Shown: positions 9,001 through 58,420, counted from the stretch's first letter. The stretch: 64,000 nucleotides of DNA from Verrucomicrobiota bacterium (GCA_027622665.1 JAQBYT010000019.1:1-64000), one strand, 5' to 3'. Made by a program: numbers and translations. Notes: generated by a model from the sequence alone, not told the origin.

Positions 9001-12000
9001 CGTCGGTTCTTTCTCCGATTCGCTTCAATTGGGGCAAGCGACAATTCATTCGCAAGGGCTCTCCGATATTTTCCTTAGCCGTCGATCATCCGATGGTTCA
9101 CCCCTTTGGATCATTGGTTTCGGAGGGATTGATTCCGACAATGGAACCGACGTCGTGATCGGTCTCGATGATACTGCCTATGTTACGGGGTCGTTTCGAG
9201 GAGTGATCTCTTTTGGTGAACATTCTTTGATATCCGAGGGAGGCAGTGATGCTTTCCTTTTAAAGGTGGATTTTCAAGGTTCGGTTATCTGGGCGAAGAG
9301 TCTTGGAGGCCCCGGCGATGATAACGGTCTTTCACTTTCGGTATCTTCAGACGGTTCTGTCCTTTGGACTGGTTTTCATTCTTCCAACTCGACGGCCGAT
9401 TCCACGGCATTGAAGGATTTTGGCGGTTTGGATACCTTTCTGGCCAAGGTGGGTGTTGACGGCTCTTATACTTGGGTTCGATCCGTGGGTGGACCAGGGG
9501 ATGATTCCGGCGAAGGCGTGGTGGTTGATCCTGCCGGAGGTTCTTACGTGGTAGGCAATGTCTCCAACCAGTCCCCCAGTGACGTTTTTCTCCTTCGCTA
9601 TAATGCAGACGGTTATCTGGTATGGGCCAGAAAAGTGGGGGGAGCATCCTCCGATACGGCAACGTCTATAGTGGCTGATTCTTCCGGTGTGTACATTGCG
9701 GGTAGCTTCGAAGGAATGGCGACTTTCGAAGATGCCTCCATCACTTCCGCAGGTCTTTCGGATGCCTATCTTGCCAAATATTCGCCTAGCGGCTCTTTGG
9801 TCTGGGTTGAACGTTTTGGTGGGACTGGAGCAGACGACAGCGACCAAATTGACCTAGATCCTTTCGGCAATCCCTGTTTACTAGGTTCATTCGAGGGTTC
9901 AATGTCTTTTGGCGATCAAGTTCTTGTTTCGGAAGGTAGTCGTGACCTTTTCCTTGCCAAGACTGCCGCCACTTCCGGAAAACTGATATGGTCTCGCAGT
10001 ATAGGGGGGGGAACTCTCGATTCGGCTCACGGATTATCCAGTGGCAGCGACGGTTCCCTCTACTTGGCTTCCCACTATCTTGGGAGTTCTCTGACGATAG
10101 ATACCCATGTGCTGTCGACAACCGGATCCCACGGTTTTTCAGTTCTAAAATTGGGTGCTCCTCATGGATTGCCAAATTCGTCTTTACCGGAAATCGGTAC
10201 CCTAGTTACGGGGCAATCATTTGGCTTCGACATGAATGCTACAAGTAATTCCGGGATTCTACCTCGTTTTCAGTTTATTTCCGGTCCGAGTTGGATGAAT
10301 TTGCAAGACCGTGGAAATGGTTCAGCACTTCTTGCAGGGATTCCTCCTGCAGGATCGTCGGGAAGTTATAACGCGAAAATACGCACTACGGATATGCAGG
10401 GTGGTACGGTCGACAAATCTCTTGAGTTTGATGTGTTTAAGAGTTTGTCGGAACCGAATGGTTTTGGAGATGAACCTGAAACCTTATGGATGCAACCGGG
10501 ACAAGGCGGAGAGTTCGCCAATGGCGTGGCGGCATCCGGGGATGGCGGTTTCTTCGTTGTTGGAGCATTCACTGGTTCCACTCAAATAGGAGGAGCAATT
10601 CTTACCGCGGAGGGACGGACGGATTCCTTCGTTGCCAAGTTTGATTCTGCCGGGAAACTGGAATGGGCCGATCGCTTTGGAGGTCTTGATCAAGACTACG
10701 CTTACGCCGTGGACGTTGACCTAAATGGTGTTGCCTACGTTGCGGGATATTTTATGGGAACCGCTACTTTTGGATCTCATGTCCTTACCAGTAGCGGTGG
10801 ATACGACATATATTTGTTGCGAATCGAACCCGACGGTCAAGTCACTTGGGCCTTGAGCTTTGGTGGAAGTTCCGAGGATTACGGCAAGGCTGTTCACGCT
10901 GCCCCGAACGGCTCGGTTTATCTCGCCGGCCATTTTTCCGATTTTGCGACATTCGGAAATTCTTTTTTGAATTCGAATGGCGGCGAGGATGGTTTCGTGG
11001 CCAAGATCAATGGATCGAACGGGACTCTCGAATGGGTCAAAAACATGGGAGGACAAAATAGTGACAGAGCTCTTGATTTATCCGAAGACGGAAAAAACGG
11101 TGTTGCCGTCGCCGGACGCTTTGAAAGCGTGGCCACTTTTGGCGGGCACTCGGTTACCAGTTTAGGTTTCGGTGATGCCTTTCTCGCCCATTATGATGCT
11201 TCGGGTTCATGCCTTTTCGCCGTTCGAGCAGGAGGGGTTGGTGAAGATGAAGGTCGAGCCGTTGTTCGCTCTTCGACAGGATCGTATCTCTTTGGCGGCA
11301 ATTTCCGAAACTCTTCTACCTTTGGAGGTCATGCAATAGTTTCTCGTGGCGGTAGTGATGCCTTTCTTGCATGGATTACTCCTGATGGGTCCTTTACTTC
11401 GGTAACCTCTCTGGGCGGTGTCTGGTCGGATGAAGTTACTGACCTAGCCCTTGACGTTTCCGGTAAACCAATAGTCGCCGGTTCCTTTCGTGGGTCCGTG
11501 GTCTTTGGGTCGAATACCTTTTCTTCTCGTGGAGATAGCGATGTATTCATTGCCAAACTGAGTGATACCAATAGTTCTGTTATGTGGGTCAAAACAGGAG
11601 GTGGCGTGGGTGCGGATGCTGCTCGAGCCGTTGCCGTCGATAGCTTGTTCGATAGGATTTGTCTGGCCGGATACGTCTCGCCGGACGCCACTTTTGACAA
11701 CCGTGCTGCAAGTCCTGATACTACCAGACGTTCCCTCCTTATTGCGGACCTTGGGTATCCATCTGTTGACGACACTAGATTTCGTTCCTATCCCCTTAGG
11801 TTCGCCACCGGGGGCGCTTTGTATCGCTATGATTTTGAAAGTGGTCCTTGGGGGACTGGCGTACCTGCTGTCTCTGCCATTCAATTGCCACCATGGTTAT
11901 CTCTACAAGACCACGGGGAAGGCAATGGCAGTATTTCGGGTGTCGTTCCTTCCGACGCTAATGGTACTTACTCCATTACACTCGTTGCATCCGATGAATC

Positions 12001-12661: not shown

Positions 12662-12759
12662 CGGGGTCTCATGGAAACTGGACTTTCTTGTCGAGGAGTA
12701 ATTAAAACCAGTATCACGACCTCGCCCGCCATCGTCAAAATTGTTGCGTCAGTTTCTCC

Positions 12760-12861
12760 TCAATTGCTCAATACTTGTACGACAAGTACCAAAATGGTGG
12801 CGACTAGAAGTATGATTGATAGCGTGACGCGATCTTTGTGGGTAGTCCTAAAAGGAGCCAT
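12760..12861 (-). CDS. Possible 33-aa single-pass membrane protein (below the ORF-track cut-off)
   Basis: ATG lies 2 nt after the dxs stop; MAPFRTTHKDRVTLSIILLVATILVLVVQVLSN has a basic N-terminus and a hydrophobic helix. Confidence 0.3.
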   Translation of the reverse strand: MAPFRTTHKDRVTLSIILLVATILVLVVQVLSN

Positions 12862-43456: not shown

Positions 43457-44239
43457 ATGAATCTTTCCCTTTATTCCGGCTCTACGGGCATGCAAGCCCA
43501 ACAACTTAACCTGAATGTCATCTCGAACAACATAGCCAATGTGAACACCACGGGCTACAAGAAGAACAAAATTGAGTTTCAGGATTTATTGTATCAGAAC
43601 CCTCGACAAGCAGGTGGTCAAACAGGTGCGGGTAACGTTATTCCTACCGGGGTCGAAATGGGTAATGGTACCAAGGTAGTTGCCACTCCGAAAGTATTCA
43701 CTCAAGGAATACTTACGCAAACCAGCGAGAAGTTGGACGTAGCCATTGATGGGACAGGGTTCTTTCAAGTTGAAAGACCCGATGGCACGGAGTCTTATAC
43801 TAGAGATGGAGCTTTCAAAGTCGGTCCCGATGGTCAATTGACCACTGCCGACGCTCTCCCGCTTGCCGCTGGAATTCAAATCGATCCCGAGGTCATCAAT
43901 GTTTTTGTGTCACCTACCGGAGAAGTTTCTGTGCAGACTGCGGACGGTGAACAAATTATCGGTCAACTTGAGCTTGTTCGTTTCCCTAACGCCTCGGGAC
44001 TCAAGGCGATGGGCGGTAATCTATTTATAGAGACCGAGGCGAGTGGTCCTCCTGAAATAGGTGCGCCTGGCGAGAACGGTTTTGGCGTCCTGCAACAAGG
44101 TTATCTTGAGATGTCTAATGTCAATGTGGTCGAGGAAATGGTAAATATGATCATTGCCCAGCGTGCCTACGAGATCAATTCCAAGTCCATTCAGACTTCC
44201 GACGAGATGCTTGGCCGAGTTAACCAACTGAAGCGCTAA
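43457..44239 (+). CDS. flgG: Flagellar distal rod protein FlgG
   Basis: ISNNIANVNTTGYKK..IEFQDLLYQ; SNVNVVEEMVNMIIAQRAYEINSK. Confidence 0.97.
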   Translation: MNLSLYSGSTGMQAQQLNLNVISNNIANVNTTGYKKNKIEFQDLLYQNPRQAGGQTGAGNVIPTGVEMGNGTKVVATPKVFTQGILTQTSEKLDVAIDGTGFFQVERPDGTESYTRDGAFKVGPDGQLTTADALPLAAGIQIDPEVINVFVSPTGEVSVQTADGEQIIGQLELVRFPNASGLKAMGGNLFIETEASGPPEIGAPGENGFGVLQQGYLEMSNVNVVEEMVNMIIAQRAYEINSKSIQTSDEMLGRVNQLKR

Positions 44240-45070
44240 ATGCGATTAGTAAGTATACTGTTCGCGAGTTTTTCTCTTTCTGCACTATTGCAGGCAGATG
44301 TTACTCGTCTGCTCCCACCTCTTGACTTGGGTGCCTTGCAACCTGTTCGAACGGCAGTGACTCGATCAGGATTTATTTCTTCCGGTCCGTCCATTCCCAG
44401 TTCCTATACCGCATCGATTTCCAAGGTGAAGGGTTCGGTTATTCTAGATGCGGAGTTGTTAGAGAAGAAAATTGCCTCGGTGCTTTCGCATCGCTACCAA
44501 GCGTCCGGACATGTTCTTGCTCGACTTTCTCGCGAGTGGAAACCGTTAAATGTTCCGGTAGATTGGGAATTCAAATTGCAGCAATCCATTCCCGATGAAC
44601 TATCGGCCAACGCTTTCATGCGTTTTTCAATTTCGTCCGATGGTCTTAAACTGGGTGAGTGGGGTTATCCCGTTAAATGTTCTCAGATGGTGGATGTAGC
44701 AGTTGCGAAAGTACCTCTGAATCGAGGGAGTCGGATAACTCCTGATCTTCTTTCTTCCAGTGCTATTGATGCTCTAGGGGCGGGAGCGAACTGCATTTTG
44801 TCCGACGCTCGCTTAAATGGTTATCAAGTGACGACTAGCCTCAAACCCGGGACTGTGCTGAAATGGAGTCATCTTTCGAAGGTGACACTCGTCCGTAAAG
44901 GGCAAGTCGTGAATGTTTTTGCCTCAGGAAAAGGCATCTTCGTTGAAATGAAGGGCCAAGCGATGGAAGACGGTGTCGAGGGTTCTTTTGTTCGTATTAG
45001 GAATATTTCTTCCAACCGTGAATTCCAAGCCAAAGTGCTAAATGAAAATAGTGTCAAAGTTTACTTCTAG
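44240..45070 (+). CDS. flgA: Flagellar P-ring formation chaperone FlgA
   Basis: Signal peptide; LVRKGQVV...GQAMEDG..G..VRIRNISS; between flgG and flgH. Confidence 0.88.
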   Translation: MRLVSILFASFSLSALLQADVTRLLPPLDLGALQPVRTAVTRSGFISSGPSIPSSYTASISKVKGSVILDAELLEKKIASVLSHRYQASGHVLARLSREWKPLNVPVDWEFKLQQSIPDELSANAFMRFSISSDGLKLGEWGYPVKCSQMVDVAVAKVPLNRGSRITPDLLSSSAIDALGAGANCILSDARLNGYQVTTSLKPGTVLKWSHLSKVTLVRKGQVVNVFASGKGIFVEMKGQAMEDGVEGSFVRIRNISSNREFQAKVLNENSVKVYF

Positions 45071-45704
45071 TCTTTTCGCTATTCTTTTTGGGGTCTTCTT
45101 CCTGTTGCCTCTAGTCGATTTATGCGCTGCTTCGCTCTGGCTGAAGAGTACCAATTCTGGCAAAGGATTGTATGTGGACAAGCGCGCACTTGCGGTAGGC
45201 GATCTACTTACTATAGACGTAAGTGAGAGTGCATCCCTTGCTGCTTCTCAAAACACGACTCGAAACCGACAAGCTCAGGTAGAAAACGCAGTAAAACAGT
45301 TCCTTTTCGCTCAAAGCAAAATGGGCACGCACAATGGTGGTTTGCCCGGCACCGAGATCGAAACTAAAAACAGTTCCAAAGGTGGGGGTTCAATTGCGAA
45401 CACGCAGAACCTGCAGGGAAAGGTCAGTGTCGTGGTGATCGACATGTTACCCAACGGGGTTCTGGTAGTGGAAGGGGCTAGGATGGTCACTTTCTCCGGC
45501 GAGAGTTACTATGCCGTGTTGAAGGGATTGGTCCGGAAGGAGGACATCGGATTCGGCTTTCGAGAAGGATTACGCTACCGAAATGTGGTTTCTTCCCAGT
45601 ATGTTGCGGATGCCCAAATCGAATTTGTGGCCAAGGGTAGTTTAAATGATGCCCAGAAGGAATCTTGGTACCAGCGTCTTTCAGGTATTCTCAATCCCTT
45701 CTGA
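45042..45704 (+). CDS. flgH: Flagellar L-ring protein FlgH
   Basis: SLW...DKRALAVGDLLTI; LPNG.LVVEG; GLVR.EDI; VADAQI; C-terminal NPF. Confidence 0.92.
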   Translation: MKIVSKFTSSLFAILFGVFFLLPLVDLCAASLWLKSTNSGKGLYVDKRALAVGDLLTIDVSESASLAASQNTTRNRQAQVENAVKQFLFAQSKMGTHNGGLPGTEIETKNSSKGGGSIANTQNLQGKVSVVVIDMLPNGVLVVEGARMVTFSGESYYAVLKGLVRKEDIGFGFREGLRYRNVVSSQYVADAQIEFVAKGSLNDAQKESWYQRLSGILNPF

Positions 45705-45715
45705 GCTGATATAGC

Positions 45716-46828
45716 ATGAGCCGTTTCAATTTTACTTTTTTCACGATTCTTGCTCTCACTTGTGCGGGTGTGTGCCTTTACGGTGCCCGGATTCAAGATT
45801 TGACTCAGGTCAAGGGTGCTCGGTCCAACCAGCTTTTCGGTTACGGAGTGGTAACGGGGTTGGCGGGGCAGGGTGACTCCCGGATCGAGTACACTGAGTT
45901 GGGTATCTTAAACGCTCTTGAACGATTGGGTATTCGAGCCGACAAGGCAGACAAGTCCCGTAACATTGCCGCAGTTATGGTGACTGCCGACATCGGTCCC
46001 TTTGCCAAGGAAGGTTCAACAATTGATGTAACCGTGGCTTCGATTGGTAATGCCGACTCCTTACAGGGGGGCATTCTTTTGCAGACCCCTCTATTCGGAG
46101 CAGATGGAGAAGTTTATGCGGTTGCCCAAGGAGCGGTTTCGATCGGTGGTGTTTCCGCAGGAGGGGCAGGAGGGGCAAGTGTGCAAGTTAACCATCCTAC
46201 TGTGGGACTGGTGACTAGTGGAGCTCTTGTCGAGCAAGAGATCGAAAGTAATATAATCGGGAATGGAAACTCAATAGAAATGATTTTGCGTTATCCCGAC
46301 GCCATGACCGCCGTGAAAATCGCGGGAGCCGTAAATAAATATTACCCCGGTACTGCCCTTGCCGTTGACGCGGGTTCCGTGAACATAAAGATTCCGGCAA
46401 CGTTTCGCGGCCAAACGACCAATTTTATCGCTGCTATCGGCGAAATTGAGGCACGTCCGAACATTGCGGCCAGGGTGATCATTAACGAACGCACGGGTAC
46501 CATTGTGGCAACCGAGAGTGTTCGGGTATCCCCCGTAGCCGTAAGCAACAGCAACGTAACGATTTTCATCAATCCGACTACGGGCGTTAGCCAACCTTTG
46601 CCTTTTAGCTCTGGAGCGACCCAAGTCCTACAGGGAGCCGATGCCGACTTGGTTGAGGAAATCGGGCGATTTGAGACTTTGACCGAGTTGGACCCTCAAG
46701 GCGCCACCACGGTCAACAACCTTGCCACCGCACTTAACCAGTTAGGTCTTACTACTCGAGAAATGACTTCCATACTTCAATCCATCAAGGCGGCCGGCGC
46801 TCTGCAGGCCGAGTTGATTATCAACTGA
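45716..46828 (+). CDS. flgI: Flagellar P-ring protein FlgI
   Basis: NQLFGYGVVTGLAG.GD; SLQGGILLQTPL; INERTGTIV; AGALQAELII. Confidence 0.96.
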   Translation: MSRFNFTFFTILALTCAGVCLYGARIQDLTQVKGARSNQLFGYGVVTGLAGQGDSRIEYTELGILNALERLGIRADKADKSRNIAAVMVTADIGPFAKEGSTIDVTVASIGNADSLQGGILLQTPLFGADGEVYAVAQGAVSIGGVSAGGAGGASVQVNHPTVGLVTSGALVEQEIESNIIGNGNSIEMILRYPDAMTAVKIAGAVNKYYPGTALAVDAGSVNIKIPATFRGQTTNFIAAIGEIEARPNIAARVIINERTGTIVATESVRVSPVAVSNSNVTIFINPTTGVSQPLPFSSGATQVLQGADADLVEEIGRFETLTELDPQGATTVNNLATALNQLGLTTREMTSILQSIKAAGALQAELIIN

Positions 46829-46839
46829 TTTCAGTTAGG

Positions 46840-47256
46840 ATGAACGCAACTCCAGAATTATCTTCCAGCCAGTATGTGGGGATGGATACCTCCATGCTCA
46901 TGGAGATGGCACATTCCCGACATGCGAGTGAGGAGCAAAAGGCTGCGGCTGTTTCCGGTCAATTTGAATCTCTTTTGGTCAAGCAGTACCTCAAGCAGGC
47001 TCTAAAGCCCATGTTCAAGGGGATTTTCAACGAGAATGGCGGAGCCTCCGGAATGTACAGGCACATGTTTACTGATGCCATGGCTGAAAGCATAGCTCAG
47101 GGAGGGGGCTTCGGGATCTCTTCGATGCTCCAGATGCACTTGAACAAAAAAGTCGATGCCGAAGGCGCCGAATTAATGAAAAATGTAAACGAGTCTGAAA
47201 TCGAGAATGAGTCAACCGATTCGTCCTCATCCTTTACCGAAAAAACTGATGGTTAA
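46840..47256 (+). CDS. flgJ: FlgJ-like rod-binding protein (no muramidase domain)
   Basis: QFESLLVKQYLK...MYRHMF...GGGFGISSML; 138 aa; after flgI. Confidence 0.85.
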   Translation: MNATPELSSSQYVGMDTSMLMEMAHSRHASEEQKAAAVSGQFESLLVKQYLKQALKPMFKGIFNENGGASGMYRHMFTDAMAESIAQGGGFGISSMLQMHLNKKVDAEGAELMKNVNESEIENESTDSSSSFTEKTDG

Positions 47257-47779
47257 TCTTACGCAAACGGGCTCTCCCGGGGTCGATTTTTCTTGGGAAG
47301 ACCTGTTGAACCTTCTTCGCGATGAGTTGGGGGAATATGGCGGTCTCATGGGTTTGCTCAGCTCTCAGCAGGCTAGCATCCTTAATCGTGAACCCGAGAA
47401 TTTGCTCGAGATCAACAAGTCTGTTCGCTCTCAAATGGAAGCGAGCAATACCTTGCAGCAACGCCGTCAAGGGTATGTTCGCTCCCTGGCAACTGGCTAT
47501 GGCAAGCCGGAAGACTCCAGTTTATCCCAGTTGCTGCCCTGTTTCCCCGTAGTAACTCAACCGATGTTTGAAAGCATTGTGGAGGAAATCAACAACTTGA
47601 TATCTAGGATTCGTCGAAAATTAGATCAAAATCGACGTCTTATTTCTCGCCTCGGCGAGGTGACGGATCAGATACTTGCCGTAGCCGACCCTCGATCGCA
47701 CTCGAAAACTTATGACAAACGAGGCGATCTTGCTCCTTTCTCAACTGCCTACCGATCCACTCTCGAGGAGTCCGCTTGA
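47249..47779 (+). CDS. flgN: Flagellar export chaperone FlgN
   Basis: Helical 'LL.LL.DE...Y..L..L...QQ' pattern, N..LI, TYD..G; directly upstream of flgK; start at ATG 47249. Confidence 0.82.
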   Translation: MVNLTQTGSPGVDFSWEDLLNLLRDELGEYGGLMGLLSSQQASILNREPENLLEINKSVRSQMEASNTLQQRRQGYVRSLATGYGKPEDSSLSQLLPCFPVVTQPMFESIVEEINNLISRIRRKLDQNRRLISRLGEVTDQILAVADPRSHSKTYDKRGDLAPFSTAYRSTLEESA

Positions 47780-47808: not shown

Positions 47809-50800
47809 GTGGCGCTTTTAGGATCAATCGTTAAAACCACCCAGGCTCTTCAGTACCATGCGAAGAGCACTGAGATTGCGGGCAAAAACCTTAGTCATGT
47901 TAATGACGAAAGTTATGCTAGACAACGAGTCGTTGCTCGTGATGGGTCAATGTATAAAGAGGTCGGTTCCCTTGGTACTAGCGCTCTTCAAATGGGCGGG
48001 CTTGATCATGCTCGAAGTGAACTTTTGGATAGGCGAGTGGTGTCGGAAGTTGGCGAAACCTCCTCCTTGGATGCTCGTAAGGAAATTTTAGATTTGCTCC
48101 AATCAGCTCTTGGCGAACGAGTCACTCGCCAAGGAGTGAACGTTGGTTTGGATGACCAATCGGAGAGTGATCTTGCCCCGGGAAGTTTAACTCGTGCCCT
48201 AAATGATTTTTTTAACGCGTTTCAGGAGCTCTCAGCTTCTCCAGATGAACCGACCATTAAACAGGAACTCTATCATAAGGTTCAGACATTGGGTAAGCGT
48301 TTCAATGAATCCGGCGAAAAGTTTGAGTCGATCGAAGCCGACTTGACTGCGACTGTAAAGCAATCAGTAGTGCAGATTAATACTATTTTGGAGAAGTTGC
48401 ATGAGGTAAACCAACAGGTACGCCGATTCGAACTTCAAGACAAAGGGAAAGCGGCCACTTACCGCGATCGTCGCCAGCAATTGCTGGAGGATTTGTCCAA
48501 GCTCATGGATTTTAAAGTGGAGGACGATGTTGATCCGACTTCGGGTCAAGCATCCGGTCTTCTGAATCTGTTCTCCACTACAACCAAGGGAGAGAAGGTG
48601 AAGCTTCTTGATCCTAATGGTTCTAAGATTTTGAGTACCAACTGGGGGCAGGAATTTGCCGTTTCCGCACCTGCTGATTCGAGTGGTACTGTGGCTCAAG
48701 TTCGCGCTAAGATCGGTGTGGATGGTAAGCTGGGTCGGGTTGAAATCCTCGATGGTGGTTCCAAGTATTCCGATGCCGATGGTCCAATTCTAGTGGCTTT
48801 GGCTCCTCCTGCTAGAACTGAGCCAGCGGAACCTGATCAAGCGCAGAACAATGCCGGGGCGGGATTGGCCGAAGCCGGAACCGTTGTCGAGGCTGCCCTT
48901 CAGGCGGGGCAACCTGTTGATCAAGGACCTGATCTAGGAGCCCAGACGGGGACTGCTGCTGTTCCTGGGGGAATTGGGGGTGGTGGCGTTGCTGGGGTAC
49001 AGGAAACCGCAACTGCTCCTACGGGTCCTGTTGCCGCTCCTTTTTCTTTGGAGCAGGGAGAAGTTTTCAATTACCAAGGAAGTTACTATCAATCACTCGT
49101 CTCGACGGCTAAGGGTGACAATCTTTCAGACGAGACCAAATTTCTCAGGATTGACACCATCCCGAATGGACAAGTCCGTGAATACTCATGGAATTTATCA
49201 GACTTGGAAAGCTTTTCTAAAGGCGAACAGTTTTATCAGAACGGGAAACTATACCAAACCACTGGCGAAATATCTCCTGTAGTTGGCGAGGTCGGTGTAT
49301 CGAATGAATCAGGTGTTCTTGTGAGTTCCCAAGGTTATGCAAAGGGCGATGTTTTCCAATATGGAGGTACTTACTATCAAGCTCTAGAGTCATTTGAAGC
49401 AGGACAAAGTTTGCCGGAGGCAGAAACCATGGGGAATCAGAGCAATGGATTTGTTTCTCTCGGAACACAACTTCCCTATGCCTCAATGGATCCCTCTCAA
49501 CTCTTAACTATTAATTCTTTTACAGACCAAGCGATTGTTAAGGGCCGGTATCTTGAAAGTAATAACAAGTATTTTGTTGCTTTGGAGGATTTTTCTACCG
49601 GAGGTTCTCAACAGAATGTGTTCAGCCCAACTTCTGACGCTCGTGTTGAAGAGGTGATGACTTTTGTTAAAACCGTAAAGACGACCGAAGATGTAATCAC
49701 ATCTCAGCGGTTGAAGCAGGGGGATGTCATTTACGACAGTCCATCGAATTCCCATTTTCTCGTGAAGACCAGTTTGCTTATCGAAACACCTGCTCAAGCG
49801 CAAACTTTCGATCCTACCTCCACTCAATGGTCCAAGTATGTGCAGAAGATTGCTCCGCAAGTAGCCGGTGGAAACAATTTAGAAATTCTTAGTCGTAAGA
49901 ATAAAACTGCTTTCGATCCTAAGTCAGACAAGGCTGTGGAATTGAATTTGGGATTGGCCGAGGCTATCGTTCAGAAGGGCGAAATCGTTGGTTTCAATAT
50001 CATTAACCAAGGCGGTGGATACCCTCCTAGTGACGCCCTTTTTGCGGATGGCGTAGAGCTTGCTCTTAAATCAGGATCCGTCCATGGTTACCAGCATATT
50101 AGAATGGATGAGATGGAGACCTTCCGTCAGCAACTGAACCGTTTGTCGACTGATTTCGTTACCCAAATAAATCAAATTTATAATCCCGATGACGAGCCAG
50201 GTGGATATATCTTTGGATTCGATGCTTTTCTAGGTCGACCTTCTCAAGGGACCAACAAGGTGATGGAGGAAGAGTATGGACTAATGGGAACTGAAGGAGA
50301 AGGTGAATTCATCCTCTACCGTGACGAGGTCGAGATGACCGTTCCATACCCGGAGAAAGACACATTCATGGTGACTTATGCTGCACCGGTGTTTCCTGAA
50401 GAACTGGAAGGAACAGTACCTTTTATTCGTGGCGATGCCGCCACCGAACTTCTAGTGCTCGAGAATCCTGACTTCGTTAAGATTTACGCATCTGCTCAGC
50501 GAATGAAGCATGTTACGATGGAAACCGATCTTGGGTATATTGGTCGAGATGGTACTCCCGGTACTGAAGATGACGGTAGAATGATGATGCTCGGATACGA
50601 AAAAATTCCCTTTCGTTTGGAGGCAGGGGATAAGTCTTTTGTATTTGGAGATAATTTCTCTTTTGATGCGGTTCCTGCGAATGCTTGGAATGTAGCGAAA
50701 AGCATGCGAGTGGATGAAGACTTTTCTTTTGATACGATTAAAGTTTCGGTTGATACCAGTAGTGGCGCCAACGACATAGCTTTGGCTATAGCTGAGAAGG

Positions 50801-51060
50801 GTAATGGAGAGTTCACTGAAAGAGTATCTACCTTAAACACTTCCATAGGAAATTCTTTGGCTGACGTGAGTGACAACCTTGAGCATCAGAAAGCTGTGGA
50901 AAGGCTTCTTCTGGACGAGCGCCAAGCCGTCAGTTCCGTTTCAATGGATGAGGAGGTCGCTGACTTGATGCGTTTTCAGCGATCTTTTCAAGCGTCTTCT
51001 CGCGTGCTCAAGACTTTGGATAGCATGCTCGAACTGATAGTTATGGGACTTCTCCGTTAG
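47809..51060 (+). CDS. flgK: Hook-associated protein FlgK, enlarged (1083 aa) by inserted modules
   Basis: N-terminal KNLSHVN..SYARQRV, LNDFFNAFQELSASP, RDRRQQLLEDLS; C-terminal SSVSMDEEVADLMRFQRSFQASSRV. Confidence 0.93.
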   Translation: MALLGSIVKTTQALQYHAKSTEIAGKNLSHVNDESYARQRVVARDGSMYKEVGSLGTSALQMGGLDHARSELLDRRVVSEVGETSSLDARKEILDLLQSALGERVTRQGVNVGLDDQSESDLAPGSLTRALNDFFNAFQELSASPDEPTIKQELYHKVQTLGKRFNESGEKFESIEADLTATVKQSVVQINTILEKLHEVNQQVRRFELQDKGKAATYRDRRQQLLEDLSKLMDFKVEDDVDPTSGQASGLLNLFSTTTKGEKVKLLDPNGSKILSTNWGQEFAVSAPADSSGTVAQVRAKIGVDGKLGRVEILDGGSKYSDADGPILVALAPPARTEPAEPDQAQNNAGAGLAEAGTVVEAALQAGQPVDQGPDLGAQTGTAAVPGGIGGGGVAGVQETATAPTGPVAAPFSLEQGEVFNYQGSYYQSLVSTAKGDNLSDETKFLRIDTIPNGQVREYSWNLSDLESFSKGEQFYQNGKLYQTTGEISPVVGEVGVSNESGVLVSSQGYAKGDVFQYGGTYYQALESFEAGQSLPEAETMGNQSNGFVSLGTQLPYASMDPSQLLTINSFTDQAIVKGRYLESNNKYFVALEDFSTGGSQQNVFSPTSDARVEEVMTFVKTVKTTEDVITSQRLKQGDVIYDSPSNSHFLVKTSLLIETPAQAQTFDPTSTQWSKYVQKIAPQVAGGNNLEILSRKNKTAFDPKSDKAVELNLGLAEAIVQKGEIVGFNIINQGGGYPPSDALFADGVELALKSGSVHGYQHIRMDEMETFRQQLNRLSTDFVTQINQIYNPDDEPGGYIFGFDAFLGRPSQGTNKVMEEEYGLMGTEGEGEFILYRDEVEMTVPYPEKDTFMVTYAAPVFPEELEGTVPFIRGDAATELLVLENPDFVKIYASAQRMKHVTMETDLGYIGRDGTPGTEDDGRMMMLGYEKIPFRLEAGDKSFVFGDNFSFDAVPANAWNVAKSMRVDEDFSFDTIKVSVDTSSGANDIALAIAEKGNGEFTERVSTLNTSIGNSLADVSDNLEHQKAVERLLLDERQAVSSVSMDEEVADLMRFQRSFQASSRVLKTLDSMLELIVMGLLR

Positions 51061-51081
51061 CGACATTTTTCTTTCACTTCA

Positions 51082-54000
51082 ATGAGAATTTCCAACCTCA
51101 GTACTACCCAAAACATAACCCGAACGATTCGGGAGATGGATCAAGAGCGTCTCAGGCTCGAAGCACAGGTTTCCAGTGGTCAAAAAATAACCCTGCCCGA
51201 AGACGACGGGATGCGCATGGGAAGGTTGATTGAACTGGATACTGAAAAAAGTGTTCTTACTCAGTATCAACGGAATGCCTCATATGCCACGGAGTATCTC
51301 AATTCCGGTCATTTGAACTTGGATAAATTGAGGGAAATTGCGGTCAGAGGTCAGGAGATTGCCAGAGTATCAGGTTCCGGGCTTAGCGGCCCTGCTATGG
51401 AGACCTATGGTTTTGAGGTGGATCAACTTATCGAAGAAGCCCTCAATCGGATTAATGCCACTCATCGGAAACAATCTCTTTTTGCAGGGGTGGATGCCAA
51501 GCCGAATTTCGCTGCATCCGAGGTGAAAGTGGGCGAACGTTTTCAGAAAACGATATCCTTCAATGATAACTATGTCGGCAAAAGTAATCCCGATGGTAAA
51601 TTTGAGTTAAAGCAGGGTGACCAGCTTTTGGTAAATGCTAACGGGCATGAATACGTTCTGACTGCTTCAGTCTCTGGCTTGGCTACTGATGTGGCATCCG
51701 CAGCCTTAGCTTCAATCATCAACCAAGATGAAGGCATTTTGAATGCCGTTCCCAAGGTAACCACTTCCGACTATGATGTATTTGTTAGGGGAAGCAAGAC
51801 ACCAGGTCAGAGAAATCCAAACATAAAAGTATTGGCTGAAACTTCGGATCAAGGTGATTTGCTTTTGGTTGCAGGTGTCGGGCAAGACTTTCAAGTTTCA
51901 GGGCAATTTGTTACTGATTTCGATCCCAATTTTTACTTTCCGGAGGCAATCAAGGCTAAATTGGATGCTGCCGCGATAGATCAATTCGGCGGCAAAATAT
52001 ACGATGAGCTGACCCCGGGTGACAAAGAATCAATTTCCGATGAGGTGTATGCAGGAACTTGGGATCGAGATCTTTTGCTTGGTGCTGCCAAGGTTGCTGG
52101 AGCAAGTACTGCCGTTATGGCGACTCCCACCGACTGGAAGAGATTGTCGAATTACGATGATGGAGAGCTTGTCTATAAAGATGGTAGTGTTTGGCGTTCT
52201 CGAATCGACGATAATTGGAATCACAAACCCGGAGAGACTGACTCGAAAATCTGGGAGAAAGTTCCTGACGGTTACTCCGTCGATAGAGAAGATTGGAAAC
52301 TTAGTGTTACTGGATCCGAGCGGCGAGAGTACTGGCTTGCCCCAGACGGCAAAATGTTCGACTTGGAATCCGAGGCGAAAAACTACACCCAACAAATCAT
52401 ACTGGATCAAGGGTACGCCACTTCTCCGGAACAGTTGGAGACCGAGACTCAAAGGCTCGTCAAGCGCATGACCTATGCCATACCTCAGTTTGAAGCCAAA
52501 GGCTCTGAAAGTGGGAACGGTCTCGTTTCTTTTGACTCACGCACTCAAGCATTTTATCTTTCTTCGCCGCAAGAGGATGGGGAGGTAATTTCAGGGGTCT
52601 ATTTCAAGGGCAATATCACTCGTGATGTCGCCTCTGTGGGAGCACAGGCAGGAAAGGCTAATGCATCTCATGAAAAAGGTGCCGTAATCTCTCGTCAAGG
52701 TCGCTATTATCTTGCTTTGGAGAATGTGGCTAAGGGGCAAGATGTCAGTGCTTGGGAGCATTTGACCGCTGATTTCCCCCCGAATTCCACTTTTACCTTT
52801 GACTCCTCACAAACTCTTTCACTTTTGAAGGGGAGTCATGTGCTGGAACCTAATAGCGGTCAGTATTTTGTGGCGACTGTTGATACTACTATTCCTGCAG
52901 GTACACCCGAAGCTGATCTCCCTCAGATTGCAGGTTTAGTTCCAGTGAGTCAGAGCAGTGACGGAGAGGTTTTACTGCTGGGGGAAAACTTGCCGAATGA
53001 AGGTAAGGAAAAGACTTTTGTTTCCGGTCGGCCTCTTTCGCTGAAAACTGGTGAGTTTCTGCATGACCCTGCTGATAATTTATATTATGTCGCGAATGCC
53101 GATTTCACCTTGGATGCCAGTCAGTCTGCATCATTTTTCCCCGAAGAATCTGCTTCACTTCATCCTGTGCCTGCTCGGATAATCCAGCAAGGAACGGATT
53201 GGGCTCCGTCCAAAACTTATGACAACGGGCAAATCGTTCATTACAACGGACGGTATTATCAAGCCAACCAAAGCAACTGGGATAATCTTTCTCGTGACCC
53301 GAATACCTTTTCGGATTTCGTTGTTTTACCTTCGGACGAGTTTATTTATGACAAAGTAAGTGGCGAAAAGATTTCGAACTCTGCTTGGCGAGTCATTGAC
53401 AAACCTCTTGGGCACGTGATGAAGTTTTCTGTAGAAAACGATCAATTGCCTACGATAACTTTTCCATCTGCGGGCACTAGCGGCACAACGGCAAAAGCCA
53501 GTGCCGTTATTGACGCCGATGGCTTTATCGCGGGATTGAGAGTAGTTGAGCCAGGTCGTTACTTTTCTGGAGCTTCAGCTGGTGGCACAGCACTTCCTCC
53601 TAGTTTCGACAACGCGAAAGTCTTGCTTCCCAATGGTCAGGAAATGGATGTAAAAGTTCTTTGGGAGCAAGATACCACATCGCCAGGGACTTGGACTGTT
53701 GCAGGTTTCGATTTTAATTCACAACCTATGCCATCAGGCATTCCCGCTGGTCCGCAAAAAGGTGATTACTATTCTTTTGCCACAGGCTCAACTTCATTTG
53801 TCGAACACCGCGATGAAAATGGTTCCATTGTGGATGTTTCTTACAACGGTTCTACAACAAATTCTGAGTTTTACATTGGTCATGAGAGCAAGATTTCTTC
53901 ACTCCTAGAAGCCAAAGAGGGAGGGACGGAGGAATTGGGAGAAGTGGTATCTGCTCTTGTTGATTTGAGAGAAGCACTTCGTAGTGCTAAGCCTTCAGGT

Positions 54001-54279
54001 TATGCAGCAGAGGTTGAAATTGCGAATCAAAAGCTCATCTCCTTGGAGGAACAGGTTGTGGACAAGATGGGCGAACTTGCGGCCAAGATGGTGCGTATGG
54101 AAACGGTCAAGTCTCACGACGAAGAGTACTATGTGGAGCTCAACGCACGTGTGTCTAGGGATCTGGACGTTGATGTGTCGGAAGCCATTATGAGGTTGAT
54201 GCAGGCTTCCACTTCATATCAAGCAGCACTTCAGGTCGGAGCCCAAATAATGAACACTTCCTTACTGAATTACCTTTAA
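51082..54279 (+). CDS. flgL: Hook-associated protein FlgL, enlarged (1065 aa) by inserted modules
   Basis: MRISN...VSSGQKITLPEDD; SLFAG; C-terminal DVDVSEAI..L.....SYQAALQ......SLLNYL. Confidence 0.92.
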   Translation: MRISNLSTTQNITRTIREMDQERLRLEAQVSSGQKITLPEDDGMRMGRLIELDTEKSVLTQYQRNASYATEYLNSGHLNLDKLREIAVRGQEIARVSGSGLSGPAMETYGFEVDQLIEEALNRINATHRKQSLFAGVDAKPNFAASEVKVGERFQKTISFNDNYVGKSNPDGKFELKQGDQLLVNANGHEYVLTASVSGLATDVASAALASIINQDEGILNAVPKVTTSDYDVFVRGSKTPGQRNPNIKVLAETSDQGDLLLVAGVGQDFQVSGQFVTDFDPNFYFPEAIKAKLDAAAIDQFGGKIYDELTPGDKESISDEVYAGTWDRDLLLGAAKVAGASTAVMATPTDWKRLSNYDDGELVYKDGSVWRSRIDDNWNHKPGETDSKIWEKVPDGYSVDREDWKLSVTGSERREYWLAPDGKMFDLESEAKNYTQQIILDQGYATSPEQLETETQRLVKRMTYAIPQFEAKGSESGNGLVSFDSRTQAFYLSSPQEDGEVISGVYFKGNITRDVASVGAQAGKANASHEKGAVISRQGRYYLALENVAKGQDVSAWEHLTADFPPNSTFTFDSSQTLSLLKGSHVLEPNSGQYFVATVDTTIPAGTPEADLPQIAGLVPVSQSSDGEVLLLGENLPNEGKEKTFVSGRPLSLKTGEFLHDPADNLYYVANADFTLDASQSASFFPEESASLHPVPARIIQQGTDWAPSKTYDNGQIVHYNGRYYQANQSNWDNLSRDPNTFSDFVVLPSDEFIYDKVSGEKISNSAWRVIDKPLGHVMKFSVENDQLPTITFPSAGTSGTTAKASAVIDADGFIAGLRVVEPGRYFSGASAGGTALPPSFDNAKVLLPNGQEMDVKVLWEQDTTSPGTWTVAGFDFNSQPMPSGIPAGPQKGDYYSFATGSTSFVEHRDENGSIVDVSYNGSTTNSEFYIGHESKISSLLEAKEGGTEELGEVVSALVDLREALRSAKPSGYAAEVEIANQKLISLEEQVVDKMGELAAKMVRMETVKSHDEEYYVELNARVSRDLDVDVSEAIMRLMQASTSYQAALQVGAQIMNTSLLNYL

Positions 54280-54332: not shown

Positions 54333-54788
54333 GTGAAACTAAACCTTCAAGATGAATCGCCCAATAGTTTGGATTCGATTCCCGTAACCCGTAACGAGGT
54401 CTCTTTGCCTCAGGGTTTGTTTGGCTTCCCCGACATCCGCTCCATGGAGCTTGTTTTTGACAAGGACGAGCTTCCCTTCATGTGGTTGCGCGAACAAGTT
54501 CAGGACGGTTTGGCTTTCGTTGTCCTCGAACCCGGCGGGATCGTCCAGAATTATTCCGTAGAAATATCCGACGCCGATATTCAAATTCTCGGTATCTCAG
54601 GCGCCGAGGACACTATGATCCTTAATATCGTTACGATTTCTTCCGAACATCCGGGAAAGATATCCTTGAATTTAGTGGGTCCGATTATCCTCAACCGCAA
54701 TACCCTCGAGGCAAAGCAATGCATCATTAATAACCACGAGGAATTCTCGGCTCGCCACATGATCGATGTGGGCGATACCGAGGTATAG
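54333..54788 (+). CDS. fliW: Flagellar assembly factor FliW
   Basis: PQGLFGF, PFMWL, LAFVVLEP, NL.GPIILN. Confidence 0.93.
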   Translation: MKLNLQDESPNSLDSIPVTRNEVSLPQGLFGFPDIRSMELVFDKDELPFMWLREQVQDGLAFVVLEPGGIVQNYSVEISDADIQILGISGAEDTMILNIVTISSEHPGKISLNLVGPIILNRNTLEAKQCIINNHEEFSARHMIDVGDTEV

Positions 54789-54817
54789 CCTTCGTTTTTG
54801 GTAGCGGAGTTGACGAA

Positions 54818-55135
54818 ATGCTTATTCTTTCGCGAAAAATCGATCAATCCATCCTCATTGGCGAAAATGTCGAGATATCCGTCACCAAGATCGAGGGTGA
54901 TTCCGTTAAAATTGGAATCACCGCACCTCGTTCAATAGCTATTCTCCGAAAAGAGATTCTGGAGGAAATGCAATCATCGAACAAAGCTGCCGCGGCAGCG
55001 GCGACGCCTGCCAAGGGTGCCTTGGTCGCGAACTCGGCTAAGCAACTCATGGCACAGTTGAAAGCTAAAAAAGCAGAACAAGCTGGGCGTCAAAACAATC
55101 CTCCCCCTCAACCCGTCTCGACTGCAGGAAATTAA
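54818..55135 (+). CDS. csrA: Carbon storage regulator CsrA with C-terminal extension
   Basis: MLILSRK..QSILIG...VKIGITAPRSIAILRKEI...NKAA; adjacent to fliW. Confidence 0.95.
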   Translation: MLILSRKIDQSILIGENVEISVTKIEGDSVKIGITAPRSIAILRKEILEEMQSSNKAAAAAATPAKGALVANSAKQLMAQLKAKKAEQAGRQNNPPPQPVSTAGN

Positions 55136-55294: not shown

Positions 55295-58200
55295 ATGGAA
55301 CGCTCGGTGATTAACTTTCGTCTTTATTTTATTGTATTTGGGATTCTCCCTTTAAGTTCTTTTGTTTTTCTTGCATTTTCGCTTTTGGGTCAAGACAAGG
55401 CAAAGAAGGACCCTGCCCTTGACCTTTACTACAGCGCCAACGCTCTTTACAATCGTGGACTGTACGAATTGGCGGTGGATGAGTTCCGGTCCTTTCTTGG
55501 TAAGCATGCCAAGCATCCCAAGGCTCCCTTTGCCAATTTGGGATTGGGGTTGTGCCTCTTCCAGGCCGGCAAACCAGCGGAGGCGGAACCCGTATTTGCC
55601 CTAATTGCAAATAATAGTCAAATTCTTGCCCTTGCTCCCGTTCACAATTTGCGAGGTAATTGCCTGCTGACTCTCGGCAAGCATGTCGATGCGGAGAAGG
55701 CCTTTTCGGCTACTATCACTGCGGACAAGAATCCTGCCCACTTGGCCGATGCCTATGCAGGTTATGCCGAGGCTCTCTACAGTCAGGGTAAGTGGGCGGA
55801 AGTCGTCAAGGCGACTGATGAGGCTTATCGCAGGGCCCCTAAATCCCCAGTTGCTCACCGTTGTTCTCTGCAGGGAGCTTTGGCCCGTTTTGAATTGAAG
55901 GATTTTCCCGGGGCCAAGACTATTCTTGATCGGCTGTCGAAGGATAAGGATACCCCTGCTGATTTCGCTCAAGATGTGTCCTTCCTGCTTGCCGAATGCT
56001 TTCGGCAGGAGAAGGACTACAAGAATGCCGTCAAATACTATGATCAAGCTCGCAAGCAAGACGGAGCTCGTTCTCTTGAAGCCAATTACAGGCTCGGTTA
56101 CGTATACTTTCTCGATGGAAATTACGATCAGTCCATCCGTGAATTAGGCGATTTCGTTAAGACAAACAAGGGTTCCGAGCTTGTTACTCGTGCAAATCTT
56201 TACCTTGGGCGAGCGTATCTTGAGAAAAAAGACCTTAACAATGCTGTCAATGCTCTAGGGGGACTTGTCGGAGATTCCGAAACCGGTGCCGAGGCAGGAC
56301 TTTGGTTGGGTAGGGCACACTTGCGGAACAAGGATTTCGTGAAAGCCGAGCAATCCTTAAAGCCCATAGTTGATCGTTTTGGGGCAGGCGATCTTGGTGA
56401 TGACCTTCGCTACGATTACGCCACTGCCCTTATGCAAGGAGACAAGTTTGCCGAGGCTGCTCCTATCTTCGCCAAGGTGGACAAAAAGGGTCCGCTTGCC
56501 GCCAATTCTCTTTGGATGGAGGCATATTCTCTTCATCAAACCAAGAGCTACGCCATCAGTCTGACGCGTTGCGAAGTGTTCCTCTCCAGTCACAAAGAGG
56601 ATGGGAATGCCCCTGAAGTTCTTTTCATCCGGGCTGAAAACCTCTTCCTTTTAGAACGGTTCGGCGAGGCGGTCGTATCGTATGAAAGCCTGCTCAAAGT
56701 TAAGGGAATACTTCCCGAACGACAAGACGTGGTCGGATTTCGCATAGGCCAAATCCGTTACCAGGAAAAGAAGTGGCCCGAGTCTCTGTCGATGTTGGAA
56801 CCCTTGCTCAACAAGAATCCAAAAGGTCTTGCATTCACTCAGCTCCGCTATGTCGCGGGTGACTGTTACTTCAATCAAGGGGATTGGAAGAAAGCTATTA
56901 CTCAGTTTCAGAATTTCGCCCAGTCCCAATCGAAGGATCCCAATGTTGGTCTTGCTCTTTTCAAGCTAGGAAAATCGCGGGAGAATGATGGTGATGCTAA
57001 TGGAGCGATACAGACATTGCGCGAGATGCTTGCCGGTCACGGTAAGGGAGAGCATGCCGCCCATGCTTCGGTTGAACTTGGGCGGCTTCTTTACGAAGCC
57101 AAGCAATTTGCCGAGGCAAAGAAGATTCTCTTGCCGGCGGAGAAATCCAAGTTCGCCCCGCATGCCATTTACTTCCTTGGTTACATTGCTTTATCCGAGG
57201 ACAACCGAGCGGATGCGCTTGCCCGCTTTCAATCCCTATCTACCCAGCACTCCGAGCACGAATTGGCTTCGGACGCCACGCTTCAATACGGCAAACTACT
57301 TGCCCTCGAAGAGGAGTTCGCCAAGGCCAAACCCGTGCTTGACGGGTTCCTCAAAAAATTCCCGAACCATGCCAAAGCAGGGCAGGCTCACTTTTACTTG
57401 GGAGTCTCCTTGGCTCGTGAAAAGGGTTTTGCTGACGCGTTGAAGCGTTTCCAAACCGTTCTTTCCGGTGACAAGGCATCACCCTTGCGCGAACGTGCTT
57501 ATTATGAGTCCGCGTGGTGTGAGAAAGGTCTTGAGATGCCTCAAAATGCACGCAAGCTTTACCAGTCACTTGTCTCTGAGTTTCCTAAGGGCGATCTCAT
57601 TCTCGATGTTTCCTTCGAGTTAGCCGAACTGGAATTCGAGGCAAAGGAGTATGCCGCCTCCGTCGCTCGCCTTCAGAAAATTTTGCCGCAAGCTACTCGT
57701 CCCGACCTAAAGGAACGAGTGTTCTATCGAGTGGGTTGGAATCGTTTCAATTTGGGTGAAGATCAAGCCGCCGCCAAAGCCTTCGAGGATATGATCGCTC
57801 TCAACCCAAAGTCCGAGAAACTTGTTATGGCCTCCTATCAGGCAGGCGAAGCTCGTTTACGCATGAAGGATTACGAACCTGCTAGACAGCATTTTCTCCG
57901 AGTGGTCAAAGCCGGCAAGACCGAAGAGGGGCTACATGAACAGGCTCTCCTCCGCCAAGGTGAAACCGAGGGCTTTACCAATCGTTGGCCAGACTCTCAA
58001 CGATGCTACGAGGAGTTTCTTCGTGCCTACGGCGCCAGTGAATTTCTTCAGAGAGCCCGTTTGGGAATTGGATGGGCATTGGAAAACCAAAACCGTTATC
58101 CCGAAGCGATTAAGCGATACCAAGAAGTTCTGACTACCGGTGATCGAGACGAAACATCGGCAAGGGCCCAATTCCAGATTGGTGAATGCCAATTGATATC

Positions 58201-58420
58201 CAAGGCATACGACGATGCCATCAAGGCGTTTGTTAAGGTAGAAGTCAATTACGCCTACCCGAAATGGGCTTCTCGAGCACTCCTTGAGATGGGGAAAGCT
58301 CTAGAAGCCAAAGGCGAACCTCAAAAAGCCAAGGCCAATTACGAACAAATCGTTAAGAAGTATCCCGAGACAACTGCTGCTTCCGCCGCCAAGAACTTGA
58401 TTGCCAAGATAGGTTCATGA
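55295..58420 (+). CDS. Exported long tetratricopeptide-repeat protein (CpoB/YbgF- or BamD-like TPR pairs)
   Basis: Signal-peptide-like N-terminus; many 'A.Y..G..Y...' TPR units with 'F/YP' turns across 1041 aa. Confidence 0.9.

Follow-up and report, generated by a model that had tools for sequence, protein, structure and literature searches.

A 64,000-nucleotide stretch of the genome of an uncultured marine Opitutales bacterium (Verrucomicrobiota; GCA_027622665.1, JAQBYT010000019.1:1-64000; hereafter the window) encodes, between positions 47,809 and 54,279, the hook-filament junction proteins FlgK and FlgL, both of giant size and each carrying a central array of five small modules. At the level of sequence profile and predicted fold, these modules are members of carbohydrate-binding module (CBM) families 5 and 12 (CBM5/12). 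Oversized junction proteins are already known; those described here carry CBM5/12 arrays in both FlgK and FlgL. A structural role for the arrays is our tentative first choice, weighed below against sugar binding.

Identity and size of the junction proteins

The flgK and flgL open reading frames (ORFs) are both intact (Table 1). FlgK matches Pfam FlgK_D1 (102.7 bits; cut-off 28.6) and Flg_bbr_C (36 bits; cut-off 23), and FlgL matches Flagellin_N (31.7 bits) and passes the NCBIfam FlgL model TIGR02550 (132.6 bits; cut-off 127.2). FlgK stays below the cut-off of the NCBIfam model TIGR02492 (160.3 bits; cut-off 170.75), a shortfall that we attribute to the insert, which splits the match into two stretches, and not to a doubtful identity. 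Full-length AlphaFold2 models were built from 38 aligned sequences for FlgK (predicted local distance difference test score, pLDDT, 76.4; predicted template modelling score, pTM, 0.69) and from 27 for FlgL (pLDDT 81.6; pTM 0.73). The core of the FlgK model superposes on Salmonella FlgK (2d4y) over 331 residues (VIA-align; Z 27.6, root mean square deviation (rmsd) 2.8 Å), and that of the FlgL model on Legionella FlgL (5yti) over 211 residues (Z 21.4, rmsd 2.1 Å).

The genome is a draft (66 contigs, 93.5% complete) and contains a single FlgK match and a single FlgL-type match, the remaining Flagellin_N matches being flagellins; thus, the ORFs of 1083 and 1065 aa are the only detected, and the working, FlgK and FlgL of this bacterium. 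The corresponding solved chains have 550-553 aa (FlgK) and 307-317 aa (FlgL) in Salmonella, and the Campylobacter junction chain has 750 aa; FlgK and FlgL here are two to three times the usual size for junction proteins.

Module arrays

A profile hidden Markov model (HMM) seeded on the ten units named in an earlier, sequence-only reading of the window (the initial annotation) recovers five modules in FlgK and five in FlgL, each with an independent E value (i-E) below 1e-3. With a loosely defined regular expression, the core motif is found four times in FlgK and five times in FlgL, against a mean of 0.11 and a maximum of 2 in shuffled sequences, and none of 2000 shuffles attains the observed count in either protein. 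By BLASTP, FlgK aa 505-619 align with the FlgL of a relative (G013; 33% identity, E 5e-10) and, in the reverse direction, FlgL aa 592-705 match the FlgK of the same relative; on these sequence comparisons, the two arrays are built of one common module type.

A second motif, a hairpin resembling 'A.A.I..DG....I....G.GY', was found by regular expression twice in FlgK and once in FlgL. Three FlgK orthologues have Pfam Biotin_lipoyl-like matches at about aa 347-376, possibly the same place as the hairpin at aa 293-320. The FlgK array follows a linker of 68 residues that is predicted to be disordered and has a mean identity of 0.31 across 38 sequences.

Kinship with CBM5/12

Pfam CBM_5_12 matches window FlgL at aa 707-732 with 25.2 bits in a whole-protein scan (cut-off 26.2), and at 53200-53277 with 31.3 bits in a genome scan, where it is the sole match in the genome over the 26.2 cut-off. 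The window FlgK insert reaches 9.1 bits (E 1.8), and a Pfam scan of the two window inserts alone returned nothing beyond the one FlgL CBM_5_12 match. The cut-off is passed by 11 of 16 FlgL and 4 of 15 FlgK orthologues, and a CBM_5_12 match at E ≤ 0.05 is present in 16 of 16 and 5 of 15, respectively.

A profile of 117 modules drawn from 33 FlgK and FlgL proteins was searched against PDB sequences and matched the CBM12 pair of Vibrio cholerae chitin deacetylase (VcCDA, 4ny2; E 2.2e-9), V. parahaemolyticus COD (E 4.5e-7), a phage tail fibre (E 6.9e-6), chitinase 2RTS (E 1.8e-3) and the chitin-binding domain of ChiA1 (1ED7; E 0.013); restricted to the two canonical FlgL module types, a profile found 1ED7 at E 9.7e-7. 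Searched against 1.84 billion representatives, the 117-module profile matched 1293 proteins at E ≤ 0.001. Among the matches listed (148, beyond the two known FlgL), 17 have FlgK or FlgL termini and 131 do not. In the reciprocal test, 42 of the 44 non-flagellar matches scanned (of the 131) are Pfam CBM_5_12 proteins at E ≤ 1e-5 (best 1e-121). No glycoside hydrolase domain was found at E ≤ 1e-5 in any of these 44 proteins; collagen repeats, phage tail-fibre domains or SLH domains occur in some of them.

PDB matches of the module profile include gp124, the tail spike of Milano, a flagellum-dependent phage of Agrobacterium (8fqc; N-terminal part), a phage tail fibre (9rkv_M) and All3316 from a contractile injection system of Anabaena (7b5h); these matches are CBM5/12-type units in non-enzymatic fibre proteins. 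Such poly-CBM_5_12 fibre and surface proteins, non-flagellar, with up to 25 units and no glycoside hydrolase domain, are the nearest non-flagellar relatives of the modules; to our knowledge, the function of their arrays is largely uncharacterised.

For both models, Foldseek ranks Vibrio chitin deacetylases next after the flagellar chains (probability 0.99 for FlgL and 0.97 for FlgK); the FlgL match to 4ny2 (probability 0.99) is local, spans 133 columns and comes without residue ranges. Residue-level superposition on solved CBMs covers one FlgK module of the ten, within the full-length model: aa 565-618 superpose on the CBM of VhCOD (VIA-align; Z 6.3, rmsd 1.6 Å, 48 residues) and on that of 3wx7 (VpCOD; Z 6.3, rmsd 1.6 Å, 48 residues), and aa 558-619 on the N-terminal CBM (aa 2-54) of chitinase 4tx8 (Z 6.7, rmsd 2.3 Å, 52 residues). 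As modelled, this FlgK module has the small 'ski-boot' beta fold of about 45-50 residues. With the full-length FlgL model, VIA-align gave only flagellar chains among the 50 matches listed, the helical cores dominating.

Known CBM5 and CBM12 modules (PF02839: 4ny2, 1ED7, Cellvibrio japonicus CBM5) share with the modules described here the core 'W....Y..G..V.Y.G..Y.A' and, as superposed for one FlgK module, a small three-stranded fold. Unlike the enzyme-attached modules, those described here are inserted in flagellar axial proteins, lack the Y-W/W-W pair considered below, and leave the second half of the profile unaligned.

Much of what the initial annotation had described is borne out: two giant junction proteins with conserved termini (intact ORFs, Pfam and NCBIfam matches, modelled cores), five units in each (profile HMM and shuffles), the same module type in both inserts (cross-matches through G013), a second beta motif in both proteins, and normal junction-protein sizes that agree with the solved Salmonella and Campylobacter chains. 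Its likening of the modules to CBM5/12 also stands, given the Pfam matches in orthologues, the profile and reciprocal searches and the one superposed FlgK module; the structural comparison of predicted models, which it had suggested, gives that module CBM5/12 topology. The length survey that it had likewise suggested finds giants throughout the window family (16 FlgL, 15 FlgK) and ordinary lengths elsewhere in the phylum sample, as detailed below.

Sugar-binding residues

In PMC8449059, chitin binding by CBM5 is ascribed to a consecutive Y-W or W-W pair together with a third aromatic residue, another tyrosine and tryptophan serving as core residues. Judged by the module sequences and their conservation, in none of the ten modules is the 'Y.A' core followed by such a pair. 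Eight have no tryptophan at all downstream of the core; these keep only the core 'YY', with leucine, valine or another non-aromatic residue aligned to the VcCDA tryptophan. In FlgL modules 2-4, which are of a divergent type, aromatic conservation is confined to the 'YY/YF' core and the downstream aromatic is not conserved.

The two canonical modules, FlgL modules 1 and 5 (aa 349-392 and 704-746), have 'NW.H.P' or 'NW.N' downstream of the core and an invariant N-terminal tryptophan. Among 27 sequences, W352 and W391 of module 1 and W707, Y713 and Y725 of module 5 are invariant, and the downstream position of module 1 is aromatic in about 70%. By sequence, the downstream aromatic of the canonical modules may correspond to the single exposed binding tryptophan of CBM12, which we take to be W687 in ChiA1. 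The Pfam alignments, and those of HMMER to 1ED7 and 4ny2, stop before this residue, covering positions 1 to about 29 of the 44 in the CBM profile.

Distribution among relatives

Of the 24 other genomes in the family of the window genome, 20 have a match to FlgL and 19 a match to FlgK; full-length FlgL proteins (n = 16) have 930-1480 aa and full-length FlgK proteins (n = 15) 1020-1709 aa. Intact, colinear counterparts of each ORF occur in at least 15 relatives, assembled independently, and orthologous modules hold their positions across genera. All eight relatives that have a taxon name (such as Opitutales, Opitutia or Puniceicoccaceae) are metagenome-assembled or single-amplified genomes, and a cultured member was not found. 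Four flagellated genomes from other families of the order encode FlgL of 298-315 aa and FlgK of 470-502 aa. An even sample of the phylum (301 genomes) includes 34 with FlgL, the window genome among them; of the other 33, 27 have contiguous matches of ordinary length, five have matches in open frames of 303-342 aa and one is ambiguous, and none shows the 2.2-kb gap that separates the N- and C-terminal FlgL matches in the window genome. Giant module-bearing junction proteins are family-wide in these uncultured marine Opitutales and were not seen in the other flagellated genomes sampled in the phylum. In one relative (G024; C11:126634-131806, locus L039), flgK has a TAA near codon 77, which may be a sequencing error or a broken gene.

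Selection and occurrence in RNA libraries

The ratio of nonsynonymous to synonymous substitution rates (dN/dS) was computed against two congeners, for FlgK on a codon alignment. It is 0.25 and 0.15 in the FlgL array and 0.35 and 0.17 in the FlgK array, compared with 0.03-0.08 (FlgL) and 0.07-0.22 (FlgK) in the core and terminal regions and 0.74 and 0.21 in the FlgK linker. By this measure, the module arrays are under purifying selection.

Near-identical sequence occurs in 20 RNA-library runs from 14 studies, three of which runs contain at least half of the sampled words. Contigs from four seawater RNA-library runs (four studies) cover 24-29 of 30 bins at ≥95% identity, and in three of these four runs the flgK-flgL boundary is bridged by one contig; such contigs attest presence in the library and are neither proof of transcription nor a ranking of expression, and empty bins are uninformative. 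Contigs of two RNA libraries have in-frame insertions of 3 and 6 bases at 48978 and 48983, within the FlgK linker, and therefore the length of this linker varies in natural populations.

Cap, flagellins and carbohydrate metabolism

Run over 19,760 ORFs of the genome, the module profile has four matches: FlgK, FlgL, the cap protein FliD and a flagellin of 938 aa. FliD has many hairpin units like the FlgK/FlgL module (summed E 2e-8; best single unit i-E 0.17), and the match of the 938-aa flagellin (E 8e-5) is likewise a sum of weak units (best single unit i-E 0.013); Pfam CBM_5_12 was not found in either protein at E ≤ 0.05. Because the signal is summed from weak units and Pfam CBM_5_12 is missing, we treat module decoration of FliD and the flagellin as a lead. 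FliD matches of relatives lie in open frames of 1240-2087 aa, compared with 612 and 817 aa in two other families, and the giant flagellin has orthologues of 704-973 aa in relatives, which also contain flagellin-like open frames of 1656-2307 aa. With FliD and flagellins also oversized, the enlargement concerns the whole exposed axial set.

The genome contains 119 sulfatase (PF00884) matches at E ≤ 1e-10, some of them clustered on contigs C65, C49 and C47. A single GH18 (in a 312-aa frame) and a single GH20 were found; a search for GH19 found none, a weak absence given that control genomes were silent too. With 119 sulfatases and only one GH18 and one GH20, the organism is not an obvious chitin feeder, and its gene content suggests that it degrades sulfated algal glycans rather than chitin.

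Role of the module arrays

We consider the most likely role of the arrays, with a probability of about 0.45 and ahead of a glycan-binding coat, to be a structural or mechanical collar made from CBM5/12-fold units. Each junction protein is enlarged by a lineage-specific exposed insert with five CBM5/12-fold modules at its centre. With 11 copies of each protein, by analogy with Salmonella and Campylobacter, the inserts would form a thick outer collar of about 110 modules. This collar would add bulk and stiffness where the hook passes into the filament, in keeping with the oversized cap and perhaps the giant flagellin. The CBM5/12 fold would thereby be reused as a small rigid building block and not as a chitin binder. 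We infer the geometry of the collar and its mechanical role. A structural collar is favoured because of the precedent of Rhodobacter sphaeroides FlgK1, the loss of binding residues in most modules, and the fibre-type relatives of the modules.

As described in PMC7277832, FlgK1 of the R. sphaeroides Fla1 flagellum has 1363 aa and forms a bulky HAP region needed to handle motor load; with deletions in its central region of 860 residues, the flagella look normal but give no propulsion, which the authors attribute to load handling. Like the proteins described here, FlgK1 is about three times the usual size, with conserved termini and a large non-conserved centre that arose by internal duplication. 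The FlgK1 repeats are flagellin-hook IN motifs (PF07196; PMC7277832, available part), whereas the repeats here have the CBM5/12 fold, and Pfam finds no PF07196 at E ≤ 0.01 in window FlgK or FlgL. Also unlike the R. sphaeroides case, both FlgK and FlgL are enlarged, and the likeness is one of size and plan only.

A second comparison is offered by Campylobacter jejuni, in which, by the available text of PMC12221982, the junction consists of 11 FlgK and 11 FlgL (as in Salmonella), FlgL has a bulky D2 domain and FliD is enlarged by an extra D4 domain. This junction (9gsx) resembles the one described here in its long FlgL (750-aa chain) and enlarged FliD; 9gsx is among the best Foldseek matches of our FlgL model (E 8.8e-9), and VIA-align aligns 279 residues of 9gsx_B to it (Z 16.6), which seems likely to be the core. 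CBM modules, present here, go unmentioned in the available text of PMC12221982. In giant flagellins, exposed inserts similarly thicken the filament, with domain shuffling among flagellar genes, and cellular folds such as protease and WD40 have been co-opted into flagellin outer domains (PMC6248924; PMC11532411; available parts). These two papers exclude or leave aside FlgL and FlgK, and their main texts do not contain 'carbohydrate' or 'chitin'. A literature search, with most subscription journals outside its reach, found no description of CBM-bearing junction proteins. The initial annotation likewise knew of no flagellum with such proteins; oversized junction proteins as such are known from R. 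sphaeroides and C. jejuni.

Several observations weigh against a collar. The disordered 68-residue linker of FlgK resembles the flexible tether of a binding module more than a rigid brace; the nearest relatives of the modules (phage tail fibres, surface proteins) are binding devices themselves; and FliD is a known adhesin in several bacteria. FlgL modules 1 and 5 keep the downstream 'N[WFY].N/H' aromatic in about 70-90% of the 27 sequences, and the conserved tryptophan together with this aromatic would fit, as far as sequence can indicate, a retained CBM12-type ligand surface in these two modules.

The same observations give some weight to an adhesive, lectin-like coat, a serious competitor to which we would assign somewhat better than one chance in three: the modules of the two junction proteins, and probably those of FliD and of one flagellin as well, would bind a polysaccharide or particle surface multivalently and make the flagellum an attachment organelle. 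Membership of CBM5/12 by profile and fold, the tryptophans and downstream aromatic of the two FlgL modules, the flexible stretch that precedes the FlgK array, and the occurrence of related modules in phage tail fibres and spikes and in an SLH surface protein are all consistent with this, as are the polysaccharide specialism of the organism (119 sulfatase matches) and arrays that are under purifying selection and present in RNA libraries. However, the CBM5 Y-W/W-W pair is found in 0 of 10 modules, 8 of 10 lack a downstream tryptophan, Pfam and HMMER align the first half of the CBM profile only, and the genome yielded only one GH18, one GH20 and no GH19 (the last a weak absence); moreover, 22 subunits near the cell, on a spinning joint, would make a poor tether compared with the filament. 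The glycan-binding, adhesive junction proposed in the initial annotation is therefore sustained in its CBM5/12 modules within exposed inserts, and weakened by the absence of the Y-W/W-W pair from all ten of them. Its more specific proposal of a tether at the flagellar base is not a natural reading, since the profile also matches FliD and the 938-aa flagellin, weakly; and its polysaccharide-degrading lineage agrees with the sulfatases, although the single GH18 and GH20 do not mark an obvious chitin feeder.

Sugar binding could also be conceived on the scale of the family, which we consider less likely than not: every exposed part of the flagellum, comprising the junction, FliD (which reaches about 2000 aa in relatives) and one or more giant flagellins, would be coated with CBM5/12 arrays that still bind glycan and serve in particle capture. 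The rotating flagellum of a degrader of sulfated polysaccharides would then double as a multivalent organelle of capture and attachment. Candidate glycans are chitin, in the fibres of diatoms or of zooplankton, and a polymer of algal origin.

It is improbable that the arrays serve surface variation or shielding, as a bulky, fast-evolving layer that hides the axial core from flagellotropic phages or grazers and in which the CBM5/12 fold is incidental. Insert length and module number do vary widely between genera (FlgK 1020-1709 aa, FlgL 930-1480 aa), the arrays evolve faster than the cores (dN/dS 0.15-0.35 versus 0.03-0.22), linker length is polymorphic in environmental contigs, and the genome has many flagellin paralogues. 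However, dN/dS is well under 1 and, at this resolution, gives no hint of diversifying selection; orthologous modules occupy the same positions in different genera; and beside the filament, the junction offers only a tiny target.

An artefact (assembly chimera, pseudogene, or chance motifs in ordinary D2-D4 domains) is scarcely credible: the genome is a draft of 66 contigs and the flgK match of relative G024 contains a TAA, but intact colinear ORFs occur in at least 15 relatives each, the models are confident (pLDDT 81.6 and 76.4), the motif count is far over chance, selection is purifying, and near-identical contigs come from RNA libraries of four studies.

Flagella gain functions other than swimming through the outer domains of their axial proteins, and few surveys have covered the junction proteins. 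Here a recognisable carbohydrate-binding fold has been copied, throughout a clade, into FlgK and FlgL, with weaker signs of it in the cap and one flagellin. Should the modules bind glycan, they would directly connect motility with particle attachment, at the molecular level, in polysaccharide degraders that are abundant in the sea. Otherwise, they would clearly exemplify the reuse of a CBM fold as structural material, and would be a caution against equating CBM5/12 matches with sugar binding.

Genomic neighbourhood and other flagellar loci

Table 1. Coordinates of flgK, flgL, their modules and other flagellar genes (window positions unless a contig or locus is named).
Feature	Location	Strand	Description
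flgK (HAP1)	47809..51060	+	Intact ORF, GTG start, 1083 aa
flgL (HAP3)	51082..54279	+	Intact ORF, ATG start, 1065 aa
FlgK hairpin copy 1, aa 293-320	48685..48768	+	Regular expression 'A.A.I..DG...I...G..Y'; model strands E296-302, E308-315
FlgK linker, aa 339-406	48823..49026	+	Pro/Ala/Gly-rich, pLDDT <50, ahead of module array
FlgK module array	49021..49848	+	Five modules; HMM 31.8-50.7 bits; block pLDDT 82-93
FlgK modules, approx. aa 405-456, 460-510, 501-551, 567-619, 626-680	49021-49176, 49186-49338, 49309-49461, 49507-49665, 49684-49848	+	HMM
FlgK hairpin copy 2, aa 717-742	49957..50034	+	Regular expression; model strands E715-722, E725-733
FlgL module 1, approx. aa 349-392	52126..52257	+	HMM 25.7 bits; canonical: N-terminal W, 'NWNH.P', C-terminal W
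FlgL modules 2-4, approx. aa 521-571, 572-626, 645-699	52642..53178 (52642-52794, 52795-52959, 53014-53178)	+	HMM 46.0, 33.8, 37.5 bits
FlgL module 5, approx. aa 704-746	53191..53319	+	Canonical type; location of Pfam CBM_5_12 match
FlgL hairpin, aa 804-830	53491..53571	+	Regular expression; model strands E805-810, E816-823
flgG, flgA, flgH, flgI, rod-binding (FlgJ-like) gene, flgN	43457..47779	+	Upstream operon genes, Pfam
flgG	43457-44239	+	First listed gene of flagellar operon
fliW and csrA	54333..55135	+	Directly 3' of flgL; Pfam FliW 102.9 bits, CsrA 78.1 bits
FliD	Contig C8 (locus L053) 9870-12773	+	Pfam FliD_N; ≥968 aa, runs off contig end
938-aa flagellin	L053 4073-6889	-	Flagellin_N and Flagellin_C, weak module-like units
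624-aa MptE-like (Maf-type) gene	L053 7798-9672	+	Adjoins 938-aa flagellin
Ordinary 346-aa flagellin	L053 239-1279	-	Near 938-aa flagellin
837-aa protein	Contig C49 (locus L054) 2228-4741	+	Flagellin_N start, PQQ/beta-propeller repeats mid-protein, no Flagellin_C match

In the window, the gene order is flgG-A-H-I-J-N-K-L-fliW-csrA, in one operon on the plus strand. The pair fliW and csrA is the usual partner switch that controls flagellin translation; it is followed by a gene for a 1041-aa TPR protein within 55295-58420. A phmmer search with FlgG returned rod-type ORFs only, and no FlgE was found by that route.

About 13 Flagellin_N loci were counted in the genome, one of them with an in-frame TGA (C58:16943-17332), and relatives have up to 20 flagellin matches. 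The MptE-like (Maf-type) gene beside the 938-aa flagellin belongs to a family linked to flagellin glycosylation. The 837-aa flagellin-like protein adjoins a protein with Laminin_G_3 and Big domains; propeller (WD40) outer domains occur in flagellins according to the available part of PMC11532411.

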